Shown: positions 35,051 to 46,986, numbered from the stretch's first letter. The stretch: DNA of 64,000 nt from an uncultured Candidatus Actinomarina sp. (GCA_902634185.1 CACPJC010000003.1:32369-96368); one strand, 5' to 3'. Notes: generated by a model not told the origin, from the letters alone. Numbers and translations are program-made.

Positions 35051-35845
35051 TTAAGCTGAACAAATATTGATGTAATCGGTTAAATACTCTTGTTCACTTG
35101 AATCTAATTCACCTGCTGTTCTGTAGTGATTGTATGCACCACCGTAATAACGCACAAGTGCATCAACTAAATATTCTTCCCCTCCAAAAAAGTCTCGTGC
35201 ATCTTGACGATATAACGTTGTTGAATTTTTTGGACAGTTCCTAGTTAAATATGTAAATGCATGAAGTGATTCATGAAGTAAAACATCATAAGAAACTGCA
35301 GCTGAAAAAGCTCTATCCGATATCCAAATAGAAAGTTTCCATTCTGCATTTTTGGTTCCATCTGAGCTTGTTCCGCTTGGATCCCATACTCCATAAGGAC
35401 ACCTCCCAACAAGTGAAGCCCCATATTGATGACAACCATTAATAACACTTATATTGTTTGTTTCGATTATTTGTAACAGTAATGGAGGTAATTGTTTGAC
35501 TAGTTCACCCAAAGTAGTTTGATTTGTGCCTTCGAATCCTGCGTATTCTGCAAATGGACCTGTGTAAACCGTTGTGGTTGTGGTTGAAGTGGTTGTTGTT
35601 GAAGTTGTAGATGTTGTGGTTGAAGTGGTTGTTGTTGAAGGTGGAACAGTTGTTGTTGAAGGTGGAACAGTGGTTGTAGTTGAAGATGTAGTAGTCGTTG
35701 GCTCAAGAGTTGTTGTAGTAGTATCAATGACTTGAATTTCTTCTTGTTCAAGTACAATTGTCTCTTCTTCTTGATTAAAGTTTATTACAACTAAAGAAAC
35801 AATTAATAACAGAAAAATAAATGAGTTTATATATCTGTTGTTCAT
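35051..35845 (-). CDS. Secreted or anchored protein: signal anchor, Thr-rich linker, Cys-containing HExxH domain
   Basis: 264 aa. Thr/Ser/Pro linker at ~35557..35725. LLHESLHAF at 35261..35275. Its start overlaps the upstream stop (ATGA). Confidence 0.7.
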   Translation of the reverse strand: MNNRYINSFIFLLLIVSLVVINFNQEEETIVLEQEEIQVIDTTTTTLEPTTTTSSTTTTVPPSTTTVPPSTTTTSTTTSTTSTTTTSTTTTTVYTGPFAEYAGFEGTNQTTLGELVKQLPPLLLQIIETNNISVINGCHQYGASLVGRCPYGVWDPSGTSSDGTKNAEWKLSIWISDRAFSAAVSYDVLLHESLHAFTYLTRNCPKNSTTLYRQDARDFFGGEEYLVDALVRYYGGAYNHYRTAGELDSSEQEYLTDYINICSA

Positions 35846-37287
35846 CTTCTGGCCTTTACTTTTATAAATAAACCTAGAATCAAAATTGTTAAAATGTATC
35901 CAATTAGGCCAATTGCAAAGGTTAAAGAAAATGAACCCATACTTAATAAATCTTGTTGCATGTTGGCAAATTCACTATCTGGAGGAACAATAAGAATTCT
36001 TATAAACAACCACAAACCCAATATAAAACTTAAAAGTGGAAAGATTTTAAAAACACCTTGAGAGTCGGTAAGAGATTCAAATAACTCATTTCCACCACCC
36101 GGCAGTGACTTAAACAAAACTCCTTCTAAACACATCAAATAGCTAAGGGCTGCAGCTGCCGTCAGTACCGTTGAGTCTTTAATAAGAGGTATAGATGTTA
36201 GATAGAAGAAACCAAACCCTGCAAGACTCAAAGCAATTGTTGAGTAAAATTTTGGTGAAAGTTTTGCTATATTTCTTCTTCCAGTGATGTACGCAGATGC
36301 AAAAAATCCAAATATAAATCCAATTGGCATTTCAAAATAGATGAAAGCAAGAGTAGAAATCCCCGCAAAAAATATTGCTTGAGGAGCCCATTTAATTCTT
36401 ACTTTTTGCTTAAAAACTTTACTCTCAATTAATCCCTCTGTCCCCTCGTAAAACAAAGTAACAGCAATTAACCCAACGAGTGCAGCAATAAATATTGCTA
36501 AATTTTCAAGATCTAAAGTTAGATCAGCTCCTTCCTCAACAAAGCCTATTAAAAATGCAGTTGAAAAAAGAACGAAAAGAACTTTAACTAAAGTAATAAG
36601 CTTCTTTGAGCCACGAATGTTTCTATCTTTGGCAAACCATCGAATATTATTCGTTGAAATAATTTTGTTAAACCATTCTTGTAAGAGCAACACTACATAA
36701 AACAAAAAGATGATTCCCGTTGAAACAATTACAGCGATGCTGTTTTTTTCTTGATCTGTCAGATCAACATCCTCAAATAAGGGAATAGACGTAATCAACT
36801 CATTTGTTATTTCAATATTTAAAAAATCAGTTTCCTCGATGACGGGTGGTGGAAGAGTTGTTGTAGTTGTTGAAGTGGTAGTTGTTGTTGAAGTTGTTGT
36901 TGGTGGTGGAATTATTTTTAATAATTTTTGATTTATGTATTCCATCTCAACTATTTTTTTACATTCCTCTGCAGGACAATCAGGCCCAGTAACATTCTCA
37001 AATTCAGTAATAAAAACGCGTATTGTGACCCTTACATAATCTGGATAGCAACATAGCTCAAGTTCGCCATCTGGGCTTTCAAGTTGAATTGTTTCAATAT
37101 TGTTGTCGTGTGAAATTTGGAGGACGATGTCATCATAGTCCTCAAAATTTATAGACCATTCAACTAATATCTTTTCATTTTCTAATCGTTTTATATCAAG
37201 CTTTATATTTTCGGTATCTAAAGTTGGAGTAAAAAATGAACCATTGAAAAAGAGGAGGAATAATAAAAATATTAGACTTTTTTTCAT
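35842..37287 (-). CDS. Polytopic membrane protein with an N-terminal exo-domain and a Thr-rich linker
   Basis: 481 aa. Signal peptide, ~125-aa Cys-containing domain, PPPTTTSTTTTTSTTTTTLPPP (36844..36909), then ~9-10 TM helices. No family recognised. Confidence 0.7.
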   Translation of the reverse strand: MKKSLIFLLFLLFFNGSFFTPTLDTENIKLDIKRLENEKILVEWSINFEDYDDIVLQISHDNNIETIQLESPDGELELCCYPDYVRVTIRVFITEFENVTGPDCPAEECKKIVEMEYINQKLLKIIPPPTTTSTTTTTSTTTTTLPPPVIEETDFLNIEITNELITSIPLFEDVDLTDQEKNSIAVIVSTGIIFLFYVVLLLQEWFNKIISTNNIRWFAKDRNIRGSKKLITLVKVLFVLFSTAFLIGFVEEGADLTLDLENLAIFIAALVGLIAVTLFYEGTEGLIESKVFKQKVRIKWAPQAIFFAGISTLAFIYFEMPIGFIFGFFASAYITGRRNIAKLSPKFYSTIALSLAGFGFFYLTSIPLIKDSTVLTAAAALSYLMCLEGVLFKSLPGGGNELFESLTDSQGVFKIFPLLSFILGLWLFIRILIVPPDSEFANMQQDLLSMGSFSLTFAIGLIGYILTILILGLFIKVKARR

Positions 37288-37290
37288 TGA

Positions 37291-37920
37291 CTACTTTTGG
37301 ATTTTAGTTGCCTTTTCAAAAATTTCATTTACATTTTCTACATACCATTCATCTGTATATTTAGACCAGACGGGATAACTTGGATCATAACGTAGCCATA
37401 GAAATGTGGATCCATTGAATAATTGAAAAATATCATCAGCAAGTTCATCAGCAGAATCAGCATCATAATTTTTGCAGAGAGATTTGAGAACATCATAGGG
37501 TTCGCGCTGTATCCATTTTCCCGATGCTTGAATATCTCTAACTTCAAACCAAGCAAATCTAATTGCATTACCAAGTTCAACAACTTTATTTGCGATTGTG
37601 TCCAAAAACATGGTTATAGCGGCACCAGGCTCTGGGGAGGTTTGTAAAAATGCATTCAACTCATCAGCAACATCTTTAAATCCTAATTGAAATAGTGATC
37701 CATAAACATCTAATTTATTCTCAGGAAAATGATTGTAAGCAGTTGCAACAGACACTCCAGCATGCTTTGCAATTTGTGAGACAGTGACTTTTTCATGAGA
37801 AACGAGTGGATTATTAAATAGCTCGACTGCACTATTTATAAGTTTTTTATGCGCCTCATCATATGTTTTTTGTGCACGTAATGATCTTCCATCCTGTTTT
37901 TTTAATGGTTCAATGCTCAT
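37291..37920 (-). CDS. TetR-family transcriptional regulator
   Basis: 209 aa. HTH VTVSQIAKHAGVSVATAYNHF. Its ATG directly abuts the TAA of the giant ORF. Confidence 0.88.
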   Translation of the reverse strand: MSIEPLKKQDGRSLRAQKTYDEAHKKLINSAVELFNNPLVSHEKVTVSQIAKHAGVSVATAYNHFPENKLDVYGSLFQLGFKDVADELNAFLQTSPEPGAAITMFLDTIANKVVELGNAIRFAWFEVRDIQASGKWIQREPYDVLKSLCKNYDADSADELADDIFQLFNGSTFLWLRYDPSYPVWSKYTDEWYVENVNEIFEKATKIQK

Positions 37921-46932: not shown

Positions 46933-46948
46933 TTCTACAACAAATTTA

Positions 46949-46976
46949 ATTTTACCTTAGAAAAGTTTCTAATCAA
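46949..46976 (-). promoter_or_regulatory. Candidate sigma-70-like promoter for the giant ORF
   Basis: On the minus strand it reads TTGATT (46976..46971), 16 nt spacer, TAAAT-type TAAAAT (46954..46949). It lies in the 54-nt thrC-to-giant spacer. Confidence 0.3.
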
Positions 46977-46986
46977 ACAAATTTTT

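Follow-up and report, generated by a model that had tools for sequence, protein, structure and literature searches.

A giant predicted surface protein of Candidatus Actinomarina carries a sortase domain, an internal sorting signal and a hypervariable ectodomain

The closest described relatives of the system reported here are the class E sortases, among them SrtE1 and SrtE2 of Streptomyces coelicolor, known together with the chaplins, and SrtF of Corynebacterium diphtheriae. To our knowledge, published accounts all treat a sortase and its substrate as two proteins. Sortase and motif are joined in one chain in the engineered self-cleaving sortase fusion tags, which are artificial, soluble and used for protein purification, and in which the enzyme is able to act on the chain that contains it. 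Class E systems use an LAxTG motif, their enzymes have a cytoplasmic N-terminal extension, and a Tyr after strand β3 (GHY, in the β3/β4 loop) has been proposed to select the Ala at position P3 of the motif (PMC5148588). Here we analysed a 64-kb stretch of DNA from an uncultured Candidatus Actinomarina (the window, to which all positions refer unless a locus is named), in which a four-gene cluster at 35051..46986, between thrC and rho, includes a giant open reading frame (ORF) that joins a predicted surface protein in frame to a sortase domain.

The sortase domain of the window shares with the class E enzymes the fold, the His/Cys/Arg triad with its TLxTC sequence and the GHY Tyr, and in the giant ORF, as in the class E systems, a helix and then a basic cluster come after the LAxTG motif, and a predicted cytoplasmic N-terminal extension lies before a helix. 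Unlike those systems, however, enzyme and substrate form one polypeptide with an internal sorting signal, two helices and a predicted cytoplasmic segment of ~135 amino acids (aa), and the class E score lies below the cut-off of the model. The fusion also differs from the engineered tags in being natural, predicted to be membrane-embedded, and conserved in sampled Actinomarina lineages. In the searchable literature we found no report of a natural fusion of substrate and sortase, and no paper that mentions both Actinomarina and sortase. A sequence-only reading made earlier had noted the giant ORF but missed its sortase end with its own sorting signal. The best explanation of the cluster, and in our judgement probably the right one, is a native operon with a sortase-fused, allele-exchanging surface protein.

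The sortase domain was identified by Pfam PF04203 (1.6e-29; 102.6 bits, cut-off 26.6) and by TIGR01076 (85.4 bits, cut-off 39.35). Among the class models, class_E_sortase (NF033747) scored best, with 109.8 bits against a cut-off of 160, and the models for classes D, C and F scored lower. The catalytic residues are the His in AGHRTTYG, Cys2980 in TLTTCHP and the Arg in RQRLVV (general form R(Q/E)RL), and the class E Tyr lies in GPGHY; all four are conserved in 17 aligned modules and in comparison with PDB sortases. GPGHY precedes the catalytic His by 19 residues and aligns to GPGHY of 5uus and GLGHY of 5go5. The best sequence matches in the PDB were 5uus, 5go5 and 5go6, which we take to be actinobacterial class E enzymes, the depositors' names not saying so; SrtE1 (5cuw) also matches.

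A genome search with the thrC protein, with one genome per species, yielded 49 loci that belong to Candidatus Actinomarina, to Actinomarinales or to the OCS155 group, and a metagenome-contig search with thrC returned 80 more, a total of about 129 Actinomarinales loci (loci and proteins are cited below by L and P numbers). The nearest relatives of the window are single-cell genomes with thrC 95-97% identical. The fusion is not an assembly accident, since the sortase gene could be seen in 21 other loci and 17 of them share the single ORF, with lengths of 1168-2892 aa compared with 3003 aa in the window. Of the four non-fused loci, one is interrupted by the end of its contig, the fragmented gene of another (L056) appears to be due to a frameshift in long reads, and two are truly split (L055 and L029). 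P0072, a 233-aa protein taken for a stand-alone sortase, proved to be a truncation at a contig start.

The motifs of the fused ORFs are LAATG, LADTG, LANTG, LAETG and MADTG, all at the same distance from the active site. Within the LA[ADNE]TG pattern the Ala, Thr and Gly do not vary among 14 aligned fused modules, and neither do the helix and the basic cluster. Of 18 fused ORFs, 14 have Leu as the first residue and 4 have Met (MADTG). These conserved elements, together with the catalytic residues and the class E Tyr, persist in fused modules as little as ~41% identical. An acidic segment just before LAxTG (39106-39250, aa about 2562-2609; consensus GPLTDDEGNDFFEWD...DGxYxVxYxYxED) is kept in all fused proteins and in the first giant protein of the split lineage, and may be an extended sortase recognition element or a wall-spanning element.

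The giant ORF runs for ~9 kb without a stop codon (Table 1). The hydrophobic core of its signal peptide covers aa 29-51, the predicted cleavage site lies between DPEPAFA and SS, and the motif TIExxDPEPAxA is common to all loci. The ectodomain consists of an N-terminal domain of ~300 aa (the N-domain), ~20 Cys-bracketed repeats of ~105 aa, a poly-Thr stalk and an acidic Pro/Asp/Thr-rich region. The repeats, ~318 nucleotides (nt) long in the DNA, carry Asp-box-like YSxDGGxxW motifs; the Pfam matches of the ectodomain were of Asp-box type only, and a PDB sequence search with the N-domain and the repeats gave no match. LAATG, at 39091..39105, is followed by a 24-residue hydrophobic helix and then RKRK, and it is the sole sorting-signal-like motif in the window. 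The candidate sortase-target peptide is EDSIALAATGINL, with the predicted cleavage site between SIALAAT and GINLDYIV. LAATG sits 365 residues before the catalytic TLTTC, and ~390 residues follow the sorting signal. With two helices around a cytoplasmic segment, the motif and the active site would both lie on the outer side of the membrane, and a linker connects the second helix to the catalytic domain. The charged segment between the helices is predicted from its sequence to be of coiled-coil character, and it has homologues in sortases of the same clade that are split or stand alone (P0245, P0247 and L055). A partner of the SafA type, known from actinobacterial sortases, was rejected for this segment, as SafA is a small protein encoded downstream of, or fused C-terminally to, a sortase (PMC9282373).

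Table 1. Features of the cluster, its giant ORF and its flanks in the 64-kb window
Feature	Position	Strand	Basis
854-aa secreted protein	49616..52180	-	Pfam PG_binding_1, Reprolysin-like; weak NCBIfam Mep72
hom (homoserine dehydrogenase), conserved flank	48316..49572	-	Pfam Homoserine_dh (2.4e-60), NAD_binding_3, ACT
thrC (threonine synthase, long form with Thr_synth_N)	46987..48315	-	TIGR00260 (203 bits, cut-off 167); Pfam PALP, Thr_synth_N
Giant ORF, 3003 aa, surface protein and class E sortase in frame	37921..46932	-	ORF map, Pfam
Signal peptide of giant ORF, aa 1-57	46762..46932	-	Hydropathy, conserved
Mature ectodomain	39106..46761	-	Translation, Cys spacing
Internal cell-wall sorting signal: LAATG, helix aa 2615-2638, RKRK	39004..39105	-	Sequence, hydropathy
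Predicted cytoplasmic segment, aa 2644-2780	38593..39003	-	Positive-inside rule, alignment
Second membrane helix, aa 2781-2800, predicted to return the chain outside	38533..38592	-	Hydropathy, conserved in alignment
Sortase catalytic domain, aa 2875-2994	37951..38310	-	Pfam PF04203
TetR-family regulator, 209 aa	37291..37920	-	Pfam TetR_N PF00440 (29 bits, cut-off 24)
Membrane protein, 481 aa	35842..37287	-	Hydropathy
Zincin-like HExxH protein, 264 aa	35051..35845	-	Invariant HExxH, predicted fold
rho, conserved flank	33586..34935	-	Pfam Rho_RNA_bind, ATP-synt_ab

The two split loci have the same elements in separate genes. There the upstream giant gene ends with [V/I]AATG, a helix, RRRR and the stop codon, a canonical sorting signal at the extreme C-terminus, which is not its place in the window ORF. 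The sortase gene starts 5 nt after this stop codon; its product begins with what remains of the motif, a degenerate (K/Q)SL(T/I)G, and has the same helix. The split lineage suggests either a broken ancestral fusion or a pre-fusion state. In both loci (L055 4896-18715 and L029 11466-21323) two giant genes lie around the separate sortase gene, in the order thrC, giant gene 1, sortase, TetR, giant gene 2. In the more distant relatives P0245 and P0109 the sortase stands alone, and its chain runs from an N-terminal helix through a long cytoplasmic domain and a second helix to the sortase domain. A plausible history is that such a two-helix sortase captured the upstream substrate, its first helix now being the hydrophobic part of the sorting signal. 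The two-helix module was found only in a narrow clade: among 1.84 billion representative proteins the full module occurred in just a few 50%-identity clusters, and more than 13,000 other matches covered the catalytic domain only.

The ectodomain differs sharply between close relatives. The DNA of the window was compared with that of the closest genomes (eleven loci), N-domain identity with thrC identity over 47 loci, and the sortase module over the 11 complete fused genes. Two blocks are conserved in the close relatives at roughly 73-96% identity, one from 33.3 to ~39.3 kb (rho and the zincin, membrane-protein and TetR genes with the sortase module) and one at 46760..49610 (signal peptide, thrC and hom). 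Between ~39180-39300 and 46760 the identity collapses in a mosaic pattern. On the upstream side the break lies at 46756-46769 in 10 of the 11 loci, where the signal-peptidase site is predicted, and at 46710 in L002. The downstream breakpoint in the more distant relatives lies ~25-65 residues before LAATG, and the closest ones, L003, L004 and L007, share DNA further into the ectodomain; the ~25-65 aa that directly precede LAATG are conserved, which puts the end of the variable part at ~39180-39300. Only the mature ectodomain (about 39.2 to 46.76 kb, ~7.6 kb) is hypervariable. Its shortest version in the 11 complete genes has 1305 aa and its longest 2552 aa; three shorter fused genes have 1168-1360 aa.

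Identity of the N-domain is not correlated with that of thrC (r = 0.08), whereas identity of the sortase module is (r = 0.83). Six N-domain allele classes were found at a threshold of at least 60% identity and are shared across lineages; five of the six occur in the thrC clade of the window, which comprises nine loci with at least 93% identity. N-domain identity was below 45% in 40 of the 66 pairs with thrC at least 94% identical, and 21 pairs had N-domains at least 85% identical with thrC at most 80% identical. The window itself is a mosaic, with the N-domain of L001 (97%) and the repeat tract of L003 (93% DNA identity). Evidently, this is allele replacement by recombination across species and not divergence in place. 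The anchors of recombination would be thrC and the signal peptide on one side and the sorting signal and sortase on the other.

An origin of these differences by fast divergence in place or by assembly errors deserves consideration, as ~20 repeats of ~318 nt could be misassembled and many single-cell-genome contigs break inside the giant gene. We consider it very improbable, since the N-domain, which is not repetitive, is only 27-34% identical between genomes with thrC 94-97% identical, while the same alleles are 82-98% identical at thrC identities of 72-88%, and since the breakpoints fall at the signal-peptidase site and just before the sorting signal in many independent assemblies.

In the mechanism that we propose, the signal peptide would export an ectodomain of ~2550 aa, and LAATG, the hydrophobic helix and RKRK would stop transfer and hold the chain in the membrane. 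The cytoplasmic segment and the second helix would then put the class E sortase domain outside, beside LAATG, where a sortase, its own or that of a neighbouring molecule, would cut between Thr and Gly and link the ectodomain to peptidoglycan; the fragment from the Gly onwards would remain as a two-helix membrane sortase. Ectodomain alleles would be exchanged by homologous recombination between the conserved flanks, leaving a few ancient classes spread across species, and the three conserved genes downstream would contribute a regulator of the TetR family, a polytopic membrane protein whose extracellular domain sits on a stalk, and a tethered zincin. For the full form of this proposal, an order-wide "self-sorting" protein in which the sortase is translated with its own substrate, cuts at the internal LAxTG and anchors the ectodomain, and in which the conserved modules act as recombination handles for ancient alleles, we see even chances.

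Several points weigh against the proposal. The class E score falls short of its cut-off, and we know of no characterised sortase substrate with an internal sorting signal. Cleavage between Thr and Gly of LAATG and wall attachment by this sortase are predictions, as is the topology, and the survey of sortases and LAxTG proteins covered the 64-kb window. Separate translation of the sortase from an internal start is possible at an in-frame ATG after RKRK-L; no recognisable ribosome-binding site was seen before it, such sites being weak throughout the genome. The giant gene is missing from the site in some deep lineages (L043, L041, L085, L086 and L137), and the link to phages discussed below is by analogy only.

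These points leave room for a real fusion whose LAxTG is not processed, the giant protein being held in the membrane and the sortase serving other substrates, being a relic, or being made from the internal start. The unfamiliar internal position of the motif fits such a protein, as do the helix-cytoplasmic-helix layout of P0245 and P0109, which have no substrate, the dispensable (K/Q)SL(T/I)G remnant kept by the split-locus sortase, and the in-frame ATG. We nevertheless find it unlikely. The Ala, Thr and Gly of the motif, behind Leu or Met, stay invariant in modules ~41% identical while their neighbours vary; the catalytic residues are intact; the giant protein of the split lineage has a canonical [V/I]AATG signal beside the same sortase; no other sorting signal occurs in the window; and the internal ATG lacks a visible ribosome-binding site.

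If the anchoring proposal is true, a conserved natural fusion shows the sortase reaction organised in one polypeptide and offers a simple system for studying action in cis, and an extremely streamlined cell with few regulators, among the smallest that live freely, secures the anchoring of its largest protein with one enzyme per substrate molecule. The locus would identify what is probably the main protein structure on the surface of a very abundant bacterium of the ocean, and the sharing of its alleles between species makes it a candidate receptor for phages or target of grazers. A few shared allele classes are the pattern expected of a surface structure under frequency-dependent selection, and by analogy the selective agent is most plausibly phages or grazers. 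Alternatively, the allele classes could be adhesins for different partners such as particles, algae or cells, and reflect niche partitioning and not phages or grazers. The architecture is typical of Gram-positive adhesins, in which tandem Ig-like repeats form a stalk between a domain at the tip and an anchor in the wall, and the tip classes are few and discrete, not of unlimited diversity. Actinomarina, however, is free-living and planktonic, with a streamlined genome (PMC7771536), and five classes within one thrC clade fit frequency-dependent selection, so we hold adhesion to be the less likely role, though a possible one; it would be compatible with the architecture proposed above.

The cluster is not a recent insertion. 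In M. tuberculosis the order, which we take as established, is thrA-thrC-thrB-rho-rpmE-prfA-hemK-Rv1301-rfe-atp, with thrB in the slot that the cluster occupies in the window. The sequence-only reading had viewed the cluster as a strain- or lineage-specific island inserted into the hom-thrC-thrB-rho block in place of thrB. Such an insertion could be argued from the four genes, which lie outside the actinobacterial core block of M. tuberculosis, from the G + C content of the giant gene (0.40-0.42 versus about 0.35), and from the lineages without the cluster. However, tblastn with the window proteins recovered the order hom-thrC-giant ORF-TetR-membrane protein-HExxH protein-rho in Actinomarina genomes from single cells and metagenomes, at thrC identities from 97% down to ~66%. 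The giant ORF, or TetR and then the giant ORF, directly follows thrC in all but ~8 of the loci that extend past thrC; in these 8 exceptions rho, or one short gene and then rho, comes right after thrC. Among the 80 metagenome loci, thrC is followed by the giant gene in ~60, by TetR and then the giant gene in ~9, by rho in 3 and by an SBF-like transporter and then rho in 2. In the deep lineages L043, L085, L086 and L137 thrC lies directly next to rho, so the cluster has been gained or lost at least once. The TetR, membrane-protein and zincin genes and the sortase module also diverge in step with the core genes. We conclude that the genes at 35051..46986 form a native operon for a surface protein, which most sampled Actinomarina lineages have in this place and which is specific to an order-level lineage, the order Actinomarinales. 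Insertion with displacement of thrB is improbable, and its strain-level form is already contradicted; what stands of the island view is the lineage specificity and a flexible part, the 7.6 kb encoding the ectodomain.

No thrB was found after thrC in any of the ~129 loci, with or without the cluster; its absence from the cluster-less lineages as well means that the cluster did not displace it, and the displacement idea is corrected accordingly. With the same genes found here in related genomes and thrB generally missing from the slot, both outcomes that the sequence-only reading had named as refuting it were observed. A 285-aa gene of the right size between thrC and rho in L089 and L091 proved to encode an SBF-like (sodium/bile-acid symporter family) membrane transporter. 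Just upstream of rho, an SBF-like membrane gene occurs in L056 (14342-15184), L058 (3567-4409) and L089 (2749-3606), and the window has none. A homoserine kinase had been reported as absent, and indeed none was found in the 64-kb window by Pfam and NCBIfam, with all ORFs of 250-340 aa and most others covered, nor did a GHMP-motif regular expression for thrB find anything there. The sole GHMP kinase of the window, at 56366..57190 between rsmA and tRNA-Gln/glmU, was rejected as ThrB, scoring 136 bits as IspE and 27 bits as ThrB; the remaining sizeable ORFs had other, unrelated assignments. Homoserine kinase, its KEGG numbers and sortase are all missing from the supplementary tables of two Actinomarina genome papers.

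The composition of the giant gene is also native. Its G + C content at third codon positions (GC3) is 0.21-0.25, compared with 0.18-0.24 in the flanking core genes, which gives no sign of recent insertion and led us to reject a foreign origin. The excess of G + C lies entirely at codon position 2 (0.54-0.59), as expected of a Ser/Thr/Gly/Ala-rich protein (29% Ser + Thr), and the low tetranucleotide correlation of the ectodomain (0.68) is due to its repeats and amino-acid bias. The absence of an integrase, transposase, flanking tRNA or flanking repeat, as claimed earlier, was upheld: no integrase or transposase domain was found among the window ORFs scanned with Pfam and NCBIfam, the lone tRNA of the window (tRNA-Gln, 56276..56350) lies ~9 kb from the cluster, and a search for flanking direct repeats found only the internal ~318-nt repeats, which encode protein domains. 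A defence system and a phage origin were likewise rejected, with no PADLOC and no PHROG match.

The locus has features in common with the replacement-type flexible islands and giant hypervariable surface proteins of aquatic prokaryotes described by Rodriguez-Valera and colleagues: constant location, content that varies even within a species, a surface product and exchange across species through recombination in the conserved flanks (PMC7771536, PMC4033161). In contrast to those multi-gene islands, the variable unit here is a segment of a single gene, delimited by the signal peptide and the sorting signal of that gene, with typical GC3 and no tRNA. The same position with differing content in close strains, as in a replacement-type flexible island, is seen for 39.2-46.76 kb only. 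The tRNA-bounded glycotype island fGI1 has been reported as the sole island kept throughout the order (PMC7771536; also bioRxiv 10.64898/2026.04.03.716425). This locus is distinct from fGI1 and, if the proposal is true, is a second order-wide hypervariable locus beside it, one that assemblies routinely break on and that published comparative genomics does not mention.

The ORF map reproduced the gene order and coordinates given earlier, hom-thrC-giant ORF-TetR-membrane protein-HExxH protein-rho, all on the minus strand, and agreed on the three smaller products: the first has the TetR_N match, the second a signal peptide and ~8 hydrophobic segments, and the third an invariant HExxH. There is no gap between hom and thrC or between the giant ORF and TetR; the TetR and membrane-protein genes are 3 nt apart, the membrane-protein and HExxH genes overlap by 4 nt, and the longer gaps are 54 nt from thrC to the giant ORF and 115 nt from the HExxH gene to rho. 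A promoter and terminator scan found such sites no commoner than in shuffled sequence, and inspection of the weak ribosome-binding sites was uninformative. The core block starting with rho comprises rho, rpmE, DUF1385, prfA, prmC, tsaC, glyA and atp, and homologous blocks are annotated in L056 and L058. Its order and orientation, with hom-thrC, are those that we take as established for M. tuberculosis (hom-thrC and rho-rpmE-prfA-prmC-tsaC...atp); the window differs in having no thrB between thrC and rho, a long-form thrC, interspersed DUF1385 and glyA, and the sortase cluster in the gap. The window thrC, at 442 aa, is the long form with Thr_synth_N; that of M. tuberculosis is a shorter form, so the synteny would be one of position and not of strict orthology. 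The amino-acid identity of hom is 71-95% in related loci. The ~100 nt 5' of rho (34930-35029; about 11515-11610 in L043) are 79% identical, although L043 lacks the cluster, and may be a rho leader or autoregulatory region.

The roles of the companion genes given here are predictions. TetR is 94-98% identical in close relatives, and its place in the cluster varies between lineages. The 481-aa protein has a signal peptide, an extracellular beta-sandwich of ~100 aa, a Thr-rich stalk and ~8 membrane helices; it belongs to the core genes, with orthologues 60-92% identical, and its weak match to NCBIfam NF041501, the FGLLP-motif membrane protein (4e-13), is under the cut-off. Its AlphaFold model is confident only for aa 21-125, and an overall predicted local distance difference test (pLDDT) score of 48 is too poor for a fold search. 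The 264-aa protein has an N-terminal helix, a Thr-rich stalk and a C-terminal HExxH domain of ~165 aa with four conserved Cys; the HExxH is invariant and the predicted fold appears zincin-like. It had no Pfam or NCBIfam match at E ≤0.01.

Homologues of the Pro-Pro endopeptidases (PPEPs) are known only from two Firmicutes orders (PMC8610288), and PPEP-1 of Clostridioides difficile releases cells by cutting adhesion proteins (PMC11460543). Compared with PPEP-1, -2 and -3, which are M34 lethal-factor-like proteins of Firmicutes that release sortase-anchored adhesins, the 264-aa protein is tethered by its N-terminal helix and Thr-rich stalk; with 12-15% identity to PPEP-2 and PPEP-3 and no Pfam match, it is by sequence not a member of the PPEP family. 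By analogy with these proteins, it may trim or shed the fibre at the Pro/Asp/Thr-rich stalk. The zincin family, with ~200 database proteins, seems to be confined to Actinomarinales. Zincin paralogues of 33-41% identity lie ahead of hom or of the 854-aa protease in many relatives (L001 5564-6004, L003 8064-8669, L004 5577-6062, L016 8150-8644 and others), and none in the window.

The 854-aa protein encoded upstream of hom has peptidoglycan-binding, cadherin-like and metzincin protease (HExxHxxGxxH) domains and calcium-binding repeats. Its slot, between hom and yqeY, is empty in L005, L006, L007, L009, L011 and L030, where hom abuts yqeY; L002 has the gene at 96% DNA and 99% protein identity, and L001, L003, L004 and L008 have versions ~40% identical. 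The region 49616-52180 is thus a second flexible slot, with presence/absence and replacement.

Three further observations were made elsewhere in the window. At 59819-61210, on the minus strand, lies a 463-aa ORF without a Pfam match at E ≤1e-5. A 2020 paper on Actinomarinales reported that no two-component systems were identifiable (PMC7771536); at 14290-15670, beside phoU and the pst genes for phosphate transport, the window encodes a histidine kinase of only 231 aa, which has HisKA and HATPase_c but neither a sensor nor a membrane part, together with a response regulator of the OmpR type. The stretch at about 8000-14300, with a G + C content of 0.27-0.30, encodes nicotinamide phosphoribosyltransferase, an aquaporin-type channel, inositol monophosphatase, Ppx/GppA, histidine phosphatase and polyphosphate kinase, and together with pst/phoU it may be a phosphate-related variable region.

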